A stretch of DNA of 11,552 nucleotides. Source: a virus (taxonomy: Duplodnaviria; Heunggongvirae; Uroviricota; Caudoviricetes). Of this stretch, positions 2,742-11,552 are shown in pieces. The DNA lies in the IMG/VR virus record IMGVR_UViG_2529293041_000008; one strand, 5' to 3'. Position 1 is the first letter of the stretch. Every line of letters starts with the position of its first letter. The notes beneath the pieces are model-generated. The model did no database searches. It saw only the letters and a program-made list of their open reading frames with translations, and was not told the origin of the DNA. Both the position numbers and the translations under genes were made by a program.

Positions 2742-2742
<1 letters not shown>

Positions 2743-3071
2743 TGGAGACGTTTCACTGGAAAGTGCGCCCGGATATGAATGTGGTATCAGAGCCGAAAGT
2801 GGTGACAGTGAAGCTGGGCGATGGTTATGAACAGCGTCGTGCGGCGGGACTGAATAACCAGTTGTCGACTTACAGCGTGACGATACGTGTTCGTAAATGT
2901 GAACACCCATCTTTAAAAGCCTTTCTGGAACGGCACGGTGGCGTCCGCGCATTTCAGTGGACGCCACCTTATGACTGGAAACCGATTAGGGTGGTTTGTC
3001 GTAAATGGTCGGCAAGCGTGGGGGCGCTGTGGGTAACCATAACGGCAGATTTTGAACAGGTCGTGGCATAG
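2742..3071 (+). CDS. M: Minor tail protein M (tail tip assembly)
   Basis: 109 aa, the same length as lambda M. Translation METFHWKVRPDM...GDGYEQR...HGGVRAFQWTPPYDW...FEQVVA resembles lambda M from memory. Start overlaps the H stop. Confidence 0.9.
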
Positions 3072-3080
3072 GAGGCTCTG

Positions 3081-3779
3081 ATGCAGGATATTCCACAGGA
3101 AACACATCATGAGACGACACGCCTCACTCAGTCAGCCCAGGTGGTGCTCTGGGAAATCGATCTGACAGAGGTCGGTGGTGAACGTTATTTTTTCTGTAAT
3201 GAGCAGAACGAAAAAGGTGAGCCGGTTACCTGGCAGGGGCGGCAGTATCAGGCATACCCCATTCAGGGGACAGGATTTGAACTGAACGGCAAGGGCAGTG
3301 CTGCCCGTCCGACACTGACGGTTTCTAACCTGCACGGCATGGTCACGGGGATGGCGGAAGACCTGCAGAGTCTGGTCGGCGGAACGGTGGTCAGGCGTAA
3401 GGTTTACGCCCGTTTTCTGGATGCGGTGAACTTCGTCAACGGAAACAGCGACGCCGATCCGGAGCAGGAGGTGATCAGCCGCTGGCGCATCGAGCAGTGC
3501 AGCGAACTGAGTGCGGTCAGTGCCTCCTTTGTGTTGTCCACACCGACGGAAACGGATGGTGCTGTTTTTCCGGGGCGTATCATGCTGGCCAACACCTGCA
3601 CCTGGACCTATCGCGGTGATGAGTGTGGTTATCACGGTCCGGCTGTCGCGGATGAATATGACCAGCCGACGTCCGATATCACGAAGGATAAATGCAGCAA
3701 ATGCCTGAGCGGCTGTAAGTTTCGCAATAACGTCGGCAACTTTGGCGGCTTCCTTTCCATTAACAAACTTTCGCAGTAA
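3081..3779 (+). CDS. L: Minor tail protein L (tail tip assembly, Fe-S cluster protein)
   Basis: 232 aa, the same length as lambda L. AGGAGG lies 8 nt upstream of the ATG. Translation MQDIPQE...VVLWEIDLTEVGGERYFFCNEQNEKGEPVTWQGRQYQ...CTWTYRGDECGY...KCSKCLSGCKF matches lambda L closely from memory, including the C-terminal Cys cluster. Confidence 0.9.
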   Translation: MQDIPQETHHETTRLTQSAQVVLWEIDLTEVGGERYFFCNEQNEKGEPVTWQGRQYQAYPIQGTGFELNGKGSAARPTLTVSNLHGMVTGMAEDLQSLVGGTVVRRKVYARFLDAVNFVNGNSDADPEQEVISRWRIEQCSELSAVSASFVLSTPTETDGAVFPGRIMLANTCTWTYRGDECGYHGPAVADEYDQPTSDITKDKCSKCLSGCKFRNNVGNFGGFLSINKLSQ

Positions 3780-3783
3780 TCCC

Positions 3784-4527
3784 ATGACACAGACAGAATC
3801 AGAGATTCTGGCGCACGCCCGGCGATGTGCGCCAGCGGAGTCGTGCGGCTTCGTGGTGAGAACGCCGGAAGGGGAAAGATATTTTCCCTGCGTGAATATC
3901 TCCGGTGAGCCGGAGGCGTATTTCCGGATGTCGCCGGAGGACTGGCTGCGGGCAGAGATGCAGGGTGAGATTGTGGCGCTGGTCCACAGCCACCCCGGTG
4001 GTCTGCCCTGGCTGAGTGAGGCTGACAGGCGGCTGCAGGTGCAGAGCGATTTGCCTTGGTGGCTGGTCTGCCGGGGTGAGATTCATAAATTCCGCTGTGT
4101 GCCGCATCTTACCGGGCGGCGCTTTGAGCACGGGGTGACGGACTGTTACACGCTGTTCCGGGATGCTTATCATCTGGCGGGGATTGAGATGCCGGACTTT
4201 CATCGTGAGGATGACTGGTGGTGTAACGGCCAGAATCTCTATCTGGATAATCTGGAGGCCACAGGGCTGTATCAGGTGCCGTTGTCAGCGGCGCAGCCGG
4301 GCGATGTGCTGCTGTGCTGTTTTGGTTCATCGGTGCCGAATCATGCCGCCATTTACTGCGGCGACGGTGAGCTGTTGCACCATATTCCTGAACAACTGAG
4401 CAAACGAGAGAGGTATACCGACAAATGGCAGCGACGCACACACTCCCTCTGGCGTCACCGGGCATGGCACGCATCTGCCTTTACGGGGATTTACAACGAT
4501 TTGGCCGCCGCATCGACCTTCGTGTAA
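3784..4527 (+). CDS. K: Tail tip assembly protein K (N-terminal JAB/MPN-like domain plus C-terminal NlpC/P60-like domain)
   Basis: ATG at 3784 sits 4 nt after the L stop; the ORF-track start at 3742 lies inside L and was not used. HSHPGGLPWLSEAD fits the JAMM-type H-x-H-x7-S-x2-D motif. Cys in DCYTLF and downstream His residues fit an NlpC/P60 fold. The 103-nt out-of-frame overlap with I matches lambda; the shorter 199-aa lambda K annotation would correspond to Met49 here. Confidence 0.85.
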   Translation: MTQTESEILAHARRCAPAESCGFVVRTPEGERYFPCVNISGEPEAYFRMSPEDWLRAEMQGEIVALVHSHPGGLPWLSEADRRLQVQSDLPWWLVCRGEIHKFRCVPHLTGRRFEHGVTDCYTLFRDAYHLAGIEMPDFHREDDWWCNGQNLYLDNLEATGLYQVPLSAAQPGDVLLCCFGSSVPNHAAIYCGDGELLHHIPEQLSKRERYTDKWQRRTHSLWRHRAWHASAFTGIYNDLAAASTFV

Positions 4528-5072
4528 AAACGGGGGCTGAAGCCATCCGGGCGTTGTCCACACAGCTCCCGGCGTTTCGTCAGAAACTGAATGACGGCTG
4601 GTATCAGGTGCGCATTGCCGGGCGTGATGCAGGTGAAACCGAATTATCTGCCCGTCTTAATGAGCCGCTGGCAAATGGTGCCGTGATCCACATCGTGCCG
4701 CATCTGGCGGGAGCTAAAAGTGGCGGTGTGTTTCAGGTGGTGCTGGGGGCGGCGCTGATTGCGGTGGCATGGTGGAACCCTGTGGGCTGGCTGGGTGCCG
4801 CGGCTGTATCGGGCATGTATGCGGCAGGGGCCAGTATGATCCTGGGTGGTGTGGCCCAGATGCTGGCACCGAAAGCCCGGACGCCCACAGCGACCAGCAC
4901 GGATAACGGTAAGCAGAACACCTATTTCTCATCACTGGATAACATGGTTGCCCAGGGCAATGTTCTGCCTGTTCTGTACGGTGAAATGCGCGTGGGGTCT
5001 CGTGTGGTTTCTCAGGAGATCAGCACGGCAGATGAAGGGGACGGTGGTCAGGTTGTGGTGATTGGCCGCTGA
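4425..5072 (+). CDS. I: Tail tip assembly protein I
   Basis: 215 aa. GAGAGG lies about 12 nt upstream. N-terminus MAATHTLPLASPGMARICLYGDLQRFGRRIDLRV and C-terminus ...NGKQNTYFSSLDNMVAQGNVLPVLYGEMRVGSRVVSQEISTADEGDGGQVVVIGR resemble lambda I from memory. The I-J gap is 60 nt, as in lambda. Confidence 0.85.
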   Translation: MAATHTLPLASPGMARICLYGDLQRFGRRIDLRVKTGAEAIRALSTQLPAFRQKLNDGWYQVRIAGRDAGETELSARLNEPLANGAVIHIVPHLAGAKSGGVFQVVLGAALIAVAWWNPVGWLGAAAVSGMYAAGASMILGGVAQMLAPKARTPTATSTDNGKQNTYFSSLDNMVAQGNVLPVLYGEMRVGSRVVSQEISTADEGDGGQVVVIGR

Positions 5073-5132: not shown

Positions 5133-8100
5133 ATGGGCAAAGGAAGCAGTAAGGGGCATACCCCGCGCGAAGCGAAGGACAACCTGAAGTCCACGCAACT
5201 GCTGAGTGTGATTGATGCCATCAGCGAAGGGCCGATTGACGGTCCGGTGGATGGATTAAAAAGCGTGCTGCTGAACAGTACGCCGGTGCTGGACAGTGAG
5301 GGGAATACCAATATCTCCGGTGTCACGGTGGTGTTCCGGGCTGGTGAGCAGGAGCAGACTCCGCCGGAGGGATTTGAATCCTCCGGCTCCGAGACGGTGC
5401 TGGGTACGGAAGTGAAATACGACACGCCGATCACCCGGACCATCACGTCGGCAAACATTGACCGACTGCGTTTTACCTTCGGTGTGCAGGCACTGGTGGA
5501 AACCACCTCAAAGGGGGACAGGAATCCGTCGGAAGTCCGCCTGCTGGTTCAGATACAACGTAACGGTGGCTGGGTGACGGAAAAAGACATCACCATTAAA
5601 GGCAAAACCACCTCACAGTATCTGGCATCGGTGGTGGTGGGTAACCTGCCGCCGCGCCCGTTCAATATCCGGATGCGCAGGATGACGCCGGACAGCACCA
5701 CAGACCAGCTGCAGAACAAAACGCTCTGGTCGTCATACACCGAAATCATCGATGTGAAACAGTGCTACCCGAACACGGCACTGGTCGGCGTACAGGTGGA
5801 TTCGGAGCAGTTCGGCAGCCAGCAGGTGAGCCGTAATTATCATCTTCGCGGGCGCATTCTGCAGGTGCCGTCGAACTATAACCCGCAGACGCGACAATAC
5901 AGCGGTATCTGGGACGGAACGTTAAAACCGGCATACAGCAACAACATGGCCTGGTGTCTGTGGGATATGCTTACCCATCCGCGCTACGGCATGGGGAAAC
6001 GTCTTGGTGCGGCGGATGTGGATAAATGGGCGCTGTATGTCATCGGCCAGTACTGCGACCAGTCAGTGCCGGACGGCTTTGGCGGCACGGAGCCGCGCAT
6101 CACCTGTAATGCGTACCTGACCACACAGCGCAAGGCGTGGGATGTGCTCAGTGATTTCTGCTCGGCGATGCGCTGTATGCCGGTATGGAACGGGCAAACG
6201 CTGACGTTCGTGCAGGACCGACCGTCGGATAAGGTGTGGACCTATAACCGCAGTAATGTGGTGATGCCGGATGATGGCGCGCCGTTCCGCTACAGCTTCA
6301 GCGCCCTGAAGGACCGCCATAATGCCGTTGAGGTGAACTGGATTGACCCGAACAACGGCTGGGAGACGGCAACAGAGCTTGTGGAGGATACGCAGGCCAT
6401 TGCCCGTTACGGTCGTAACGTCACGAAGATGGATGCTTTTGGCTGTACCAGCCGGGGGCAGGCACACCGCGCCGGGCTGTGGCTGATTAAAACAGAACTG
6501 CTGGAAACGCAGACCGTGGACTTCAGCGTGGGCGCAGAAGGGCTTCGCCATGTGCCGGGCGATGTCATTGAAATCTGTGATGATGACTATGCCGGTATCA
6601 GCATCGGCGGGCGCGTGCTGGCGGTAAACAGCCAGACCCGGACGCTGACGCTCGACCGTGAAATCACGCTGCCATCCTCCGGTACCACGCTGATAAGCTA
6701 GGTTGACGGAAGTGGCAATCCGGTCAGCGTGGAGGTCCAGTCCGTCACCGACGGCGTGAAGGTAAAAGTGAGCCGTGTTCCTGACGGCGTTGCCGGATAC
6801 AGCGTGTGGGGGCTGAAGCTGCCGACGCTGCGCCAGCGCCTGTTCCGCTGCGTGAGTATCCGTGAGAACGACGACGGCACGTATGCCATCACCGCCGTGC
6901 AGCATGTACCGGAAAAAGAAGCCATCGTGGATAACGGGGCGCACTTTGACGGCGACCAGAGCGGCACGGTGAATGGTGTCACGCCGCCAGCGGTGCAGCA
7001 CCTGACTGCCGAAGTCACCGCAGACAGCGGGGAGTATCAGGTACTGGCCCGCTGGGATACGCCGAAGGTGGTGAAGGGCGTGAGTTTCATGCTTCGCCTG
7101 ACCGTGGCAGCGGATGACGGCAGTGAGCGGCTGGTCAGCACAGCCCGGACGGCGGAAACCACATACCGCTTCACACAACTGGCGCTGGGGAACTACAGGC
7201 TGACAGTCCGGGCAGTAAATGCGTGGGGGCAGCAGGGCGATCCGGCATCGGTATCGTTCCGGATTGCCGCACCGGCAGCGCCGTCGCGGATTGAGCTGAC
7301 GCCGGGTTATTTTCAGATCACCGCCACGCCGCATCTTGCGGTTTATGATCCGACGGTACAGTTTGAGTTCTGGTTTTCGGAAAAGCGGATTACCGATATC
7401 AGGCAGGTTGAAACCAGCGCGCGCTATCTTGGCACGGGGATGTACTGGATAGCCGCCAGTATCAATATCAAACCGGGCCATGATTATTACTTTTATATCC
7501 GCAGTGTGAACACCGTTGGCAAATCGGCATTCGTGGAGGCTGTCGGTCAGGCGAGCGATGATGCGGAAGGTTACCTGGATTTTTTCAAAGGCCAGATAAC
7601 CGAATCCCATCTCGGCAAGGAGCTGCTGGAAAAAGTCGAGCTGACGGAGGATAACGCCAGCAAACTGGAGGAGTTTTCGAAAGAGTGGCAGGACGCTAAC
7701 GATAAGTGGAATGCCATGTGGGGCGTCAAAATTGAGCAGACCAAAGACGGCAAACATTATGTCGCGGGTATTGGCCTCAGCATGGAGGACACGGAAGAAG
7801 GCAAGCTGAGCCAGTTTCTGGTTGCCGCTAACCGTATCGCGTTTATTGACCCGGCAAACGGGAATGAAACGCCGATGTTTGTGGCGCAGGGCAATCAGAT
7901 ATTTATGAACGACGTGTTCCTGAAGCGCCTGACGGCCCCGACCATTACCAGTGGTGGAAATCCACCGGCATTTTCCCTGACATCAGACGGAAAGCTGACC
8001 GCTAAAAATGCGGATATCAGTGGCAGAGTGAATGCGAACGCCGGGACGCTCAACAATGTCACGGTAAATGAAAACTGTACGATTAAGGGCATGCTGGAGG

Positions 8101-8546
8101 CGACTCAGGTCAGAGGTGACTTCGTTAAAGCTGTATCCAAATCATTTCCGAAACAGGCTGGTACGTGGGGTAACACGGAAACACCAAACGGGACGGTTAC
8201 AGTCACCATCAGCGATGATCATAACTTTGACCGTCAAATCATTATTCCGCCCATTATCTTTAACGGAATAGCGTATAGCTATCCGGGAAGTGGTAATAAC
8301 CCGGGAGGTACAAGATACACGGGTTATGGTTTTGAAGTTCGCAAAAACGGTGTATTAATCGCATCCAGAGAAACTAAAGGGGCCATTCCCGGTAGCTACA
8401 GTGCGGTTATTGATATGCCGAGTGGCAGGGGAAGCGTCACTCTGGAGTTTAAGGTTTTCCATAAAGGCAATCAGTGGGCAGGTAATATCACCGACTGTAC
8501 GGTGATTGTGACCAAAAAAGCCGCTTCCGGCATCAGTATTCGTTGA
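5133..8546 (+). pseudogene. J: Central tail fibre / host specificity protein J, full length but interrupted by one in-frame amber codon (TAG 6699-6701); ORF-track pieces 5133-6701 and 6729-8546 are the same frame
   Basis: The two pieces are in the same frame and together span about 1136 codons, close to lambda J (1132 aa). N-terminus MGKGSSKGHTPREAKDNLKSTQLLSVIDAISEGPIDG is lambda-J-like. The sequence right after the stop ([29 protein letters not shown]) continues the J protein with no start codon or RBS. The last ~150 aa differ from lambda J as I recall it. Confidence 0.85.
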
Positions 8547-8566
8547 AATTGTTATAACCCATATAA

Positions 8567-8591
8567 GGGCACCAGAAATGGTGCCTTTTTT
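8567..8591 (+). terminator. Rho-independent terminator after J
   Basis: Stem GGCACC (8568-8573) / GGTGCC (8580-8585), loop AGAAAT, followed by TTTTTT (8586-8591). Confidence 0.6.
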
Positions 8592-8615
8592 ATTGCAGAA
8601 AAGCGAGAGGTAATT

Positions 8616-9218
8616 ATGCGTAAAGTTTGTGCAGCAATTTTGTCCGCAGCCATCTGTCTGTCCGTATCCGGTGCGCCTGCATGGGCGTCTGAACATCAGT
8701 CCACACTGAGCGCGGGGTATCTTCATGCCCGGACGAACGCTCCCGGTAGCGATAATCTTAACGGGATTAACGTGAAATACCGTTATGAATTTACGGACAC
8801 GCTGGGGCTGGTGACGTCATTCAGCTATGCAGGAGACAAGAATCGCCAGCTTACCCGTTACAGCGATACCCGCTGGCATGAAGATTCCGTGCGTAACCGC
8901 TGGTTCAGCGTGATGGCGGGGCCGTCTGTGCGCGTGAATGAATGGTTCAGCGCGTATGCGATGGCGGGTGTGGCTTACAGCCGTGTGTCGACTTTCTCCG
9001 GGGATTATCTTCGCGTAACTGACAACAAGGGGAAAACGCACGATGTGCTGACCGGAAGTGATGACGGTCGCCACAGCGACACCTCTCTGGCGTGGGGAGC
9101 TGGCGTGCAGTTTAACCCGACCGAATCCGTGGCCATTGATATTGCTTATGAAGGCTCCGGCAGTGGCGACTGGCGCACTGACGGTTTCATCGTGGGTGTC
9201 GGTTATAATTCTGATTAG
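8616..9218 (+). CDS. lom: Lom-family outer-membrane beta-barrel protein (Ail/PagC/OmpX family), lysogenic-conversion moron; C-terminus apparently altered by a 1-nt deletion
   Basis: GAGAGG RBS about 7 nt upstream. Signal peptide [24 protein letters not shown] followed by SEH. Alternating beta-strand pattern with ...DGFIVGVGY near the end. Sits between J and the tail fibre as in lambda and has its own downstream terminator. Ends GYNSD, lacking the family-typical terminal Phe. Confidence 0.85.
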
Positions 9219-9241
9219 CCAGGTAACACAGTGTTATGACA

Positions 9242-9267
9242 GTCCGCCGGTTCAGGCGGGCTTTTTT
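9242..9267 (+). terminator. Rho-independent terminator after lom
   Basis: Stem GTCCGCC (9242-9248) / GGCGGGC (9255-9261) with one G-U pair, loop GGTTCA, followed by TTTTTT (9262-9267). Confidence 0.6.
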
Positions 9268-9278
9268 GTGAGGTGAAT

Positions 9279-10549
9279 ATGGCAGTAAAGATTTCAGGTG
9301 TACTGAAAGACGGCACAGGAAAACCGGTACAGAACTGCACAATCCAGCTGAAAGCAAAACGTAACAGTACCACTGTGGTGGTGAACGCGCTGGCCTCAGA
9401 AATCCGGATGAAGCCGGGCGTTACAGTATGGACGTTGAGTACGGTCAGTACAGCGTTATTCTGTTGGTGGAGGGATTCCCGCCGTCACATGCCGGGACCA
9501 TCACCGTGTATGAAGATTCTCAACCCGGTACGCTGAATGATTTTCTCGGTGCCATGACGGAGGATGATGCCCGTCCGGAGGCACTGCGACGTTTTGAACT
9601 GATGGTGGAAGAGGTGGCGCGTAACGCTGAGGAGGCGAAGAAGAATGCCGGAGAGGCAGAGACGTCAGCGAGGAATGCGGGTATATCAGCCGGCCAGGCG
9701 GAAAAGAGTGCAGTAAATGCTGAGACTTCTGCAGGGGATGCATCGGAGTCAGCCCGGCAGGCGACGGAAAGTGCAGCCTCAGCAAAGCAGTCAGAGGATG
9801 CGTCCTCGTCCTCGGCTTCTGCGGCCGCTCAAAAAGCCAGTGAGTCATCACAAAGTGCAGCAGAAGCTGAATTGTCAAGAAAGACGGCAGAAAGTGCAGC
9901 CGGTAATGCATCCAGGGATGCAACGACCGCAGCAGAAAAAGCCCGGGAGTCAGCAGAAAGCGCACAGTCAGCGGAACAAAGCAGGATAGCGGCGGAAGAC
10001 GCCGTAAACCGAATCCCCACCGTGGTGGGACCTCCCGGGCCAAAGGGGGAACAGGGGCCCGCGGGTCCTCAGGGGCCGAAGGGTGATAAGGGAGAGCGCG
10101 GTGACACCGGCCCTGTCGGGGCAACCGGCGAACGGGGACCGGCAGGTGATGCTGGTCCGGCAGGCCCGCAGGGGCCGAAAGGTGACAGGGGAGAGCGGGG
10201 AGAGACCGGTCTGACGGGAAATGCAGGTCCACAGGGTCCAAAGGGAGATACCGGTGCGGCAGGCCCACAGGGACCGAAAGGAGAAACAGGTGCGGCTGGC
10301 CCGGTGGGGGCAACCGGACCTCAGGGACCGAAGGGCGACCCGGGGGAGACACAAATCCGTTTTCGTCTGGGGCCGGCGAGCATTATTGAGACAAACAGCA
10401 ATGGCTGGTTCCCGGATACAGATGGCGCACTCATCACCGGACTGACCTTTCTTGACCCCAAAGATGCCACACAGGTTCAGGGGCTGTTTCAGCATTTGCA
10501 GGTCAGGTTTGGTGACGGGCCGTGGCAGGATGTTAAGGGGCGTGGATGA
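9279..10549 (+). pseudogene. stf: Side tail fibre protein (lambda Stf-like N-terminus, Ala/Ser/Glu-rich coiled region, collagen-like repeat, C-terminal globular domain) with a -1 frameshift near codon 40
   Basis: ATG at 9279 is preceded by TGAGGTG. N-terminus [36 protein letters not shown] matches lambda Stf from memory. The frame then drifts into nonsense and stops at 9536, while the neighbouring frame continues with the Stf-like ...[60 protein letters not shown]. The shift is at the A-run in TCAGAAATCC (9396-9405). Confidence 0.75.
10028..10342 (+). repeat. Collagen-like repeat: 35 uninterrupted Gly-X-Y triplets within the tail fibre gene
   Basis: Direct translation: [105 protein letters not shown]. 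Confidence 0.9.
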
Positions 10550-10604
10550 AGTGGGCAGTGATACAGGCAGAACAGGAGAATGACATGAATATACTAAAAA
10601 ACTT

Positions 10605-10853
10605 ATGCAGCGTCTGTGTGGTTGCGGAAAGCATGATGGCCGTGAACACGTGCAGTCGCTTACAGCACAACTGCGTCTGGGGCCGGCAGACATCCTGGAG
10701 TCCGATGAGAATGGTATTATTCCGGAGCAGGACAGGGTAATCACGCAGGTGGTGATACTGGATGCAGATAAAAAGCAGATACAGTGCGTGGTAAGACCGC
10801 TGCAAATCCTGCGTGCTGACGGGGTGTGGGAAAATATTGGCGGGATGAAGTAA
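10605..10853 (+). CDS. Short ORF (82 aa) paralogous to the C-terminal domain of the upstream tail fibre; possible fibre-tip or chaperone-like module, or a remnant of a second fibre gene
   Basis: ...AQLRLGPADILESDENGIIPEQDRVITQVVILDADKKQIQCVVRPLQILRADGVWENIGG aligns with the fibre C-terminus ...[62 protein letters not shown]. An identical 14-mer CGTCTGGGGCCGGC occurs at 10364-10377 and 10674-10687. No good RBS before the ATG at 10605, so start and frame are uncertain. Followed by a terminator-like hairpin. Confidence 0.45.
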   Translation: MQRLCGCGKHDGREHVQSLTAQLRLGPADILESDENGIIPEQDRVITQVVILDADKKQIQCVVRPLQILRADGVWENIGGMK

Positions 10854-10868
10854 CCCGACAGCTTCACA

Positions 10869-10897
10869 AAACCGGAGTCCGGCTCCGGTTTTTGTTG
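10869..10897 (+). terminator. Terminator-like hairpin after the short fibre-paralog ORF
   Basis: Stem ACCGGAG (10871-10877) / CTCCGGT (10883-10889), loop TCCGG, extendable by A-T pairs, followed by TTTTGTTGT. The T tract is interrupted, so strength is uncertain. Confidence 0.5.
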
Positions 10898-11084
10898 TCA
10901 TGTCATGGTGATGTTTGTTAATGAAGGCTTGAGGGAATATTTATCCGTATGAAGGAATATGGTAATGCCTGGATTAATATCATATGTGTCATCGGCTTCA
11001 TCGTGAATGAGATGATGGAGCTGCGTCAGCAGGTAATGGAGGGGCAGATTGGTGGATTTCTCCTGGGAGGGGCTGTCTCTTATA

Positions 11085-11110
11085 CACAAATCCCCACCCG
11101 GGGATTTGTG
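11085..11110. repeat. Perfect 11-bp inverted repeat with 4-nt spacer (CACAAATCCCC-ACCC-GGGGATTTGTG) overlapping the inner part of the IS terminal repeat
   Basis: Arms 11085-11095 and 11100-11110 are exact reverse complements, read directly from the sequence. Confidence 0.8.
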
Positions 11111-11237
11111 ATGTCTGTCAGTCTGCTTTAGGGGGACTCTTTCCATCCGGTAGTTTCCTTCCTCCCCGGCAGCGATTTTTTGAACTTTTTCCTCACCCGT
11201 TGATCTTCTCTTATATTTCATTTTCTTCGGGTCTGTT

Positions 11238-11552
11238 ATGGTACTTTCTGATTGTTATTCATGGGCTAACGAGCAGTTTTGACATGCCCGTCTCGGTGAT
11301 CCGCGTCGTACACGACGCCTTGTGTCACTGGCCTCTTCTCTCGCTCAGCATGCAGGTCTTTCTATTGTGAAATCATCCCAGTCCACTGCTCAGGTTGAAG
11401 GTGCGTACCGCCTGATACGTAACCCGTCTGTGTCCCCGCAAGCCATTGCCGAAGCCGGATTTACCGCCACTGTAAGGGCATGTGAGGCTCATCCGCTGCT
11501 CCTCGCGCTGGAAGACACCACCACCATTAACTTCAGTCACAGTACGGCATCT
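11238..11552 (+). pseudogene. IS50/Tn5-like transposase N-terminal region (3' end outside window), interrupted by an in-frame TGA at codon 15 (11280-11282)
   Basis: MVLSDCYSWANEQF-TGA-HARLGDPRRTRRLVSLASSLAQHAGLSIVKSSQSTAQVEGAYRLIRNPSVSPQAIAEAGFTATVRACEAHPLLLALEDTTTINFSH aligns in frame with the Tn5 Tnp N-terminus as recalled (...DWAKSVFSSAALGDPRRTARLVNVAAQLAKYSGKSITISSEGSKAMQEGAYRFIRNPNVSAEAIRKAG...LLAIEDTTSLSYRH). The TGA falls at a sense position (Ser18 of Tn5 Tnp). Confidence 0.65.

Follow-up and report, generated by a model that had tools for sequence, protein, structure and literature searches.

A probable relic of a phage 434-type receptor-binding domain at the end of gene J in a lambdoid prophage contig

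The window considered here, an 11,552-nucleotide stretch filed as IMG/VR record IMGVR_UViG_2529293041_000008, is the entire draft contig AFJB01000002.1 of NCBI assembly GCA_000249175.2 (the two sequences are identical) and holds the tail-tip end of a lambdoid prophage, including gene J (5133-8546, plus strand; 1137 codons, one of them an in-frame stop), which encodes the tail-tip or central tail fibre protein. The terminal part of J, 8060-8546, is, with a probability that we put at about 88%, a lambdoid J protein's receptor-binding domain (RBD) in the allelic form of phage 434 (h434), present in this contig as a relic. The original prediction, made from the letters alone, had described a protein that tracks lambda J up to about residue 980 and then ends in some 150 residues of only scattered identity, encoded by AT-richer DNA, and had proposed a horizontally exchanged receptor-binding module directed at a receptor other than LamB. 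The observation was correct and its interpretation is supported as essentially right; the module is long known, very common and ordinary, and there is nothing new in either the exchange or the allele. The J end is a clean example of receptor-binding cassette exchange in lambdoid J genes, and otherwise matters mainly for correct annotation.

Identity of the J end

In a MAFFT alignment of translated J with the J proteins of lambda (NC_001416) and 434 (OL657227), identity to lambda amounts to 0.90-1.00 per 50-residue block up to column 950, drops to 0.72 in columns 951-1000 and reaches only 0.42, 0.30 and 0.30 in the last three blocks. The decay sets in at residue 965, the first J residues unlike lambda being 965, 970, 978 and 980, so that the boundary originally placed at 8060, or about residue 980, was right within a few codons. 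Over the last 149 residues identity to lambda is 35.9% (tblastn). The same transition is seen in the DNA, where blastn homology to lambda ends at 8100 and returns at 9081 within the downstream gene lom, and where the 60-nucleotide blocks 8020-8079 and 8080-8139 have identities of 0.87 and 0.57, respectively; values of 0.37-0.62 come next, and up to about 9120 identity stays within 0.28-0.77.

What, then, does the J end resemble? Its last 149 residues are 95.3% identical to J of phage 434, 99.3% identical to those of Perceval, ev099 and Shiga toxin (Stx) phages of the Stx1a and Stx2c types, and 93-95% identical to those of mEp460 and phage 2851. The identities among phage records form discrete classes, with 74 records at 93% or more, 169 below 60% and none between. 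Megablast hits to 8000-8546 comprise 76 phage records, of which 33 reach at least 99% identity; Stx1a- and Stx2c-converting phages, Perceval, PhiR49_1 and phage cdtI are among them, and 30 phage records share this DNA at 99.6% identity. The allele is also common in bacterial genomes, the DNA of 8100-8546 being found in 2111 of 5426 complete Escherichia coli genomes (~39%); among chromosome or plasmid records, 660 have it at no less than 99% identity. J of the window clusters with 434 and shows a lambda-like body up to residue ~964, beyond which allele-specific sequence extends across the spacer and into lom; for a lambda-type, LamB-binding allele, by contrast, 35.9% identity is too low, and DNA homology past 8100 is missing.

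The gene has the length of phage 434 J (1137 residues) and is 94.8-97.2% identical in DNA to J of lambda, 434 and PhiR49_1. The Pfam families FNIII-A_GpJ, Phage-tail_3, Ig_J, Ig_J_second, Phage_Tail_Tip and Ig_GpJ_C were all found in it, with the domain order Ig_J, Ig_J_second, Phage_Tail_Tip and Ig_GpJ_C placing the RBD at the extreme C-terminus. On the plus strand, a lambda-like body (5133-8042; hub domains, FNIII/Ig domains, helical shaft and beta-prism fibre; 90-100% DNA identity to lambda per 120-nucleotide block) gives way to a junction zone of decaying lambda identity (8043-8132; residues ~965-1000), which leads into the 434-type RBD (8133-8540), the GC-poorest stretch of the contig. 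The remainder of the block without DNA homology to lambda, comprising the J-lom spacer and the first ~500 nucleotides of lom (8547-9120), is 86-100% identical to phage 434 per 60-nucleotide block. PF12421 (Ig_GpJ_C, the C-terminal receptor-binding domain of tip attachment protein J) gives the RBD 93.4 bits, where 26.2 is the curated gathering score, and the match takes in profile positions 1-134 (of 135) and residues 1001-1136 of J. Taken alone, the last 149 residues align end to end with solved RBDs, namely those of A8 gpJ (9wca, E=7e-26) and lambda gpJ (8xcj, E=3e-18; 8iyk, ~1e-18), and the J end, judged by these alignments, is a homologous allele of the lambda Ig-like RBD and not a foreign fold. 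A single-sequence AlphaFold2 model of residues 939-1137 is all-beta, and its pLDDT (predicted local distance difference test) of 52.7 is too poor for use.

The closest known counterparts share some of these features and differ in others. J of phage 434 (OL657227, CPT_434B_21; also in lambda h434 imm21, OM418627) has the same junction with lambda and shares the spacer and the 5' part of lom, but its RBD departs from that of the window at seven positions (window residue first: S1004A, Q1008K, A1009V, N1019D, S1049D, Y1050N and R1099G); six further substitutions lie between residues 943 and 980, and the window copy carries an amber codon at position 523. The same sub-allele as in the window occurs in Perceval (LF82, OV696612), PhiR49_1, ev099, cdtI and the O157 Stx1a/Stx2c phages (e.g. 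LC727876-LC727902), which are 99.1-99.6% identical in DNA over 8000-8546 (ev099, 97.3%) and, in the records tested, 99.3% identical in protein over the last 149 residues. Unlike the window copy, J is uninterrupted in the two of these phages checked by translation, and in the Stx2c phages the N-terminal half of J has diverged far more (54-89% DNA identity). The lambda gpJ RBD (residues ~990-1132; 8xcj, 8xck and 8iyk; LamB as receptor) is homologous, occupies the same position and shares the motifs DDHxFDRQ, VIDMPxGRG and KKxAxGIS, but is separated from the window RBD by the low identity given above, by several indels between these conserved motifs and by its higher GC content.

The base composition bears out the predicted AT-rich J end and at the same time refines it. 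GC content is 0.468 in 8060-8546 against 0.576 in 5133-8059 (chi-square p = 1.1e-5), and a plot across J is anything but flat: equally GC-poor windows of 487 nucleotides make up 2.4% of those in the contig, the poorest of them starting at 8171, within the J end. The fall begins earlier than predicted, however, at about 7380, from which point GC content lies at 0.49-0.53. GC content at third codon positions (GC3) drops from 0.698 to 0.463 between the same two segments, and this difference of 24 points therefore reflects a different nucleotide background and not just different amino acids. The equivalent C-terminal segment has a GC content of 0.475 in phage 434 and 0.546 in lambda, and, because of the latter value, the low GC is a property of the 434-type allele and not of J C-termini in general.

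Cassette exchange and receptor use

Since the lambda h434 hybrids, J genes have been known to exchange receptor-binding cassettes, a process on which the engineering of delivery particles now draws. In the window this exchange can be followed by comparing J bodies. PhiR49_1, Stx2c phages and two E. coli prophages all have J genes that match 8043-8546 at 99-100% identity, whereas the J of an Stx2c phage is only 54-89% identical in DNA per 120 nucleotides over 5133-6926, the J of the E. coli EC12 prophage has a different middle block at 7527-7922, and lambda is 90-100% identical up to 8042 and unrelated at the DNA level thereafter. The same RBD thus sits on strongly differing J bodies, which shows modular exchange directly, and the horizontal transfer originally proposed is borne out by this shared cassette and by the discrete identity classes described above. 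J contains at least three mosaic junctions, at 6927 (against the Stx2c phage), at 7527-7922 (against the EC12 prophage) and at 8043-8080 (against lambda), the RBD swap being one among several exchange points in the gene. The block without homology to lambda runs past J, through the spacer and ~500 nucleotides of lom, homology ceasing at about 8080 and resuming at about 9120. Most probably the allele is one of several discrete, homologous RBD cassettes that lambdoid phages swap by recombination, upstream in the conserved stretch around J residue 964 and downstream in lom; the low GC and GC3 would then reflect a separate evolutionary history of the cassette and not amino-acid constraints.

Which receptor might such a cassette address? 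Lambda gpJ is a trimer that terminates in an Ig-like RBD, and the four loops at the bottom of this domain insert into LamB; this binding spreads the three RBDs, and the change travels up the fibre and opens the tail tip (PMC11101478). When lambda J is exchanged for that of 434, lambda turns to OmpC, which 434 itself uses as receptor (PMC11101478, PMC3509688; also Hantke 1978, as cited elsewhere). Natural gpJ C-termini grafted at residue 964 likewise switch lambda from LamB to OmpC, and gpJ variants tell OmpC variants apart (PMC11338833); the 1A2 variant, for example, discriminates EDL933 OmpC from K-12 OmpC. J of the window departs from lambda at residue 965, which adjoins the published splice point of functional gpJ chimeras (lambda gpJ 964; PMC11338833). 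In a functional phage, the far end of the central tail fibre is made up of three RBD copies; their bottom loops bind a trimeric outer-membrane porin (for the 434 allele OmpC, not LamB), and porin binding is passed up the fibre so that the tail tip opens. If expressed in an intact J, the window RBD would, given its 95% identity to 434, be expected to bind OmpC, and the proposal of a receptor other than LamB thus gains support from the homology of the last 149 residues to an OmpC allele. Prophages that carry this cassette would be predicted to use OmpC rather than LamB.

A8 (9wca/9wcb) and 1A2 gpJ (Brodel et al., Nature 2024, PMC11338833) follow the same principle, an OmpC-using RBD cassette placed after lambda residue 964, but both are other alleles than that of the window. 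A8, the closest solved structure, aligns with the window RBD over its whole length with many substitutions and two short gaps, and 1A2 has a printed end, ...VVVMKKATAGITIS, different from that of the window J. When the window RBD was considered as A8 or 1A2, three strings of 20-21 nucleotides from the window were without a match in the Nature 2024 supplement. OmpC use is thus already reported in the literature for three types of J cassette (434, A8 and 1A2). Might the sub-allele that differs from 434 recognise other OmpC variants than classical 434 does, e.g. O157-type OmpC? This suggestion, drawn from the behaviour of other gpJ variants, is doubtful; if true, the sub-allele would be a natural variant in specificity that could help to predict the host range of prophages. 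We found no receptor data for Perceval and the PhiR phages in the literature.

Other accounts of the J end fare poorly against these data. A drifted lambda-type RBD that still binds LamB would belong to the same domain family and occupy the same place in J, as the window RBD does, but it should not cluster with 434 at 95% identity, when 434 J confers OmpC dependence on lambda, nor should intermediates between the identity clusters be missing; such a domain is very unlikely here. Even harder to entertain is a non-homologous replacement in which an unrelated binding domain was captured from elsewhere. The ~36% identity to lambda, the absence of DNA similarity detectable by blastn and the 24-point GC3 shift might all suggest it, yet the collinear alignment to the lambda and A8 RBDs is full-length (E=3e-18 and 7e-26, respectively) and Ig_GpJ_C covers 134 of 135 profile positions, by which this capture is refuted at the level of sequence. 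Least credible of all is mutational pseudogene decay, by which the J end would have diverged and lost GC after an upstream stop. J is in fact interrupted upstream and neighbouring genes are damaged, but intact J genes, among them the one in the LF82 prophage Perceval, have this J end at 99-100% identity, which refutes the reading; moreover, its dN/dS (ratio of nonsynonymous to synonymous change) between the window and 434 is 0.10 over codons 965-1137, as expected under purifying selection, and the frame stays open from the amber codon to the normal J stop. The latter two features mean that the J end is not decayed sequence, and we retain the 434-type cassette as its identity.

The amber codon and the state of J

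The original prediction overlooked an in-frame TAG at 6699-6701 (plus strand), codon 523 of J. Over 6500-6900 the two closest relatives differ from the window by this single base and read CAG (Gln) in the context AGCCAGGTT; lambda, 434 and PhiR49_1 have CTG at codon 523. The change, from CCAGG to CTAGG, is one C>T that affects the internal, methylated cytosine of a Dcm site in textbook style, and no other CCWGG site of the contig has a substitution at its inner C. Deamination of 5-methylcytosine is a classical route to amber codons. The route is reportedly the one described by Coulondre et al. 1978 and by Lutsenko and Bhagwat 1999. A TAG at 6699-6701 occurs in no complete E. coli genome, the best match being 99.8% and the lone mismatch in the two top matches being the amber base itself. 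As the mutated codon specified Gln, exact restoration of the ancestral protein may be expected in a supE (glnV) suppressor host.

What does the stop mean for the RBD behind it? A functional J runs without interruption over ~1132-1165 codons, from which this copy departs by the TAG at codon 523; recorded gene calls accordingly split it into products of 522 and 605 residues, the former on record for this contig only. With J cut by the amber codon, and with the tape-measure gene H cut by the insertion sequence (IS) IS100 and frameshifted, this prophage is most likely unable to produce a tail tip that bears the RBD, and the domain is here most likely a relic. J is probably a true pseudogene in a defective prophage, and its annotation in this contig should say so, with the prophage noted as IS-disrupted.

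Several points weigh against a relic of the 434 form. The fold was assigned through sequence homology to solved gpJ structures, the structural model being too poor for this purpose, and the OmpC variants recognised could differ from those of 434, given the seven RBD residues that set the two apart. In addition, the stop and the single-base indels come from one draft contig, and the indels, located for the most part in short mononucleotide runs, may be sequencing errors; J might in that case be intact in the real genome. The alternative to which these latter points lead is that the stop and the frameshifts are errors of draft sequencing or assembly and that an intact J places the 434-type RBD in a tail tip that works or worked recently. 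We consider this unlikely, though far from negligible. The window is indeed a complete 11.5-kb draft contig, the TAG is found in no other genome, and of the six single-base indels that separate it from the closest relative (TT>T, G>GG, AAA>AA, AAAA>AAA, +G and A7>A6) four fall in mononucleotide runs of 2-7 bases, two of the six being single-G insertions. The amber, however, is a substitution and not an error in the length of a base run, it is the very change expected from deamination of 5-methylcytosine, and other CCWGG sites show no systematic errors, while the IS100 junction within the tape-measure gene is independent structural evidence of a defect. The amber substitution and the IS junction are thus less likely to be errors than the indels are, and we infer that the stop codon is real, which leaves the J end as a probable relic.

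Neighbouring genes and their damage

Upstream of J, the window contains fragments of H (409-2742), whose 5' part is missing and replaced at the start of the contig by an end of IS100kyp (IS21 family; 1 to ~408), followed by M (2742-3071), L (3081-3779), K (3784-4527) and I (4425-5072). Compared with the intact H of E. coli DCE7 (CP090611), H has a 1-nucleotide deletion at 934 and a 1-nucleotide insertion at 2037, and therefore ~1.1 kb of it is out of frame. At the right end of the contig lies ISEc13 (IS4 family; 11062-11552), an element very abundant in the enteropathogenic E. coli strain E2348/69, where it occupies 35 places. The assembly broke at both contig ends because IS100 and ISEc13 sit there.

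Downstream of J, lom (8616-9218, plus strand) encodes an Ail/Lom outer-membrane beta-barrel. With 1 nucleotide deleted at 9206 (AAA>AA), the protein ends in ...GVGYNSD where Lom of lambda and of 434 ends in ...GVGYKF, so that the terminal aromatic residue is lost, a residue normally required for assembly of outer-membrane beta-barrels. A terminator-like hairpin with a T run (8565-8598, plus strand; a consensus match only) begins 19 nucleotides past the J stop codon, and a second one lies directly past that of lom (9241-9272); such hairpins are not more numerous in the region than expected from shuffled sequence, and their placement after the two stops is suggestive. Two overlapping open reading frames (ORFs) at 8355-8726 (minus strand) and 8068-8271 (alternative frame) gave no Pfam match, no Rfam match was obtained across the whole window, and 7800-9300 contains no promoter-like site.

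The side-tail-fibre gene with collagen-like repeats and its assembly gene (stf and tfa; ~9279-10853) follow lom. In stf, we found a 1-nucleotide deletion at 9399, an in-frame loss of 9 nucleotides at 10256 within the collagen-like Gly-X-Y repeats, and a 1-nucleotide insertion at 10542; tfa has a 1-nucleotide deletion at 10595 (A7>A6). The collagen-like stretch of stf has a GC content of 0.67-0.70, a strong excess of A over T and a period of 36 nucleotides, and a minus-strand ORF at 9501-10352 (283 residues; no Pfam match) is probably a by-product of the repeats. No Pfam match was found for a minus-strand ORF at 10898-11221 (107 residues) either. The best E. coli hits leave the segment between tfa and ISEc13 (10854-11061) unmatched; nleH and cif, genes for type III secretion system effectors, come after tfa in the closest relative.

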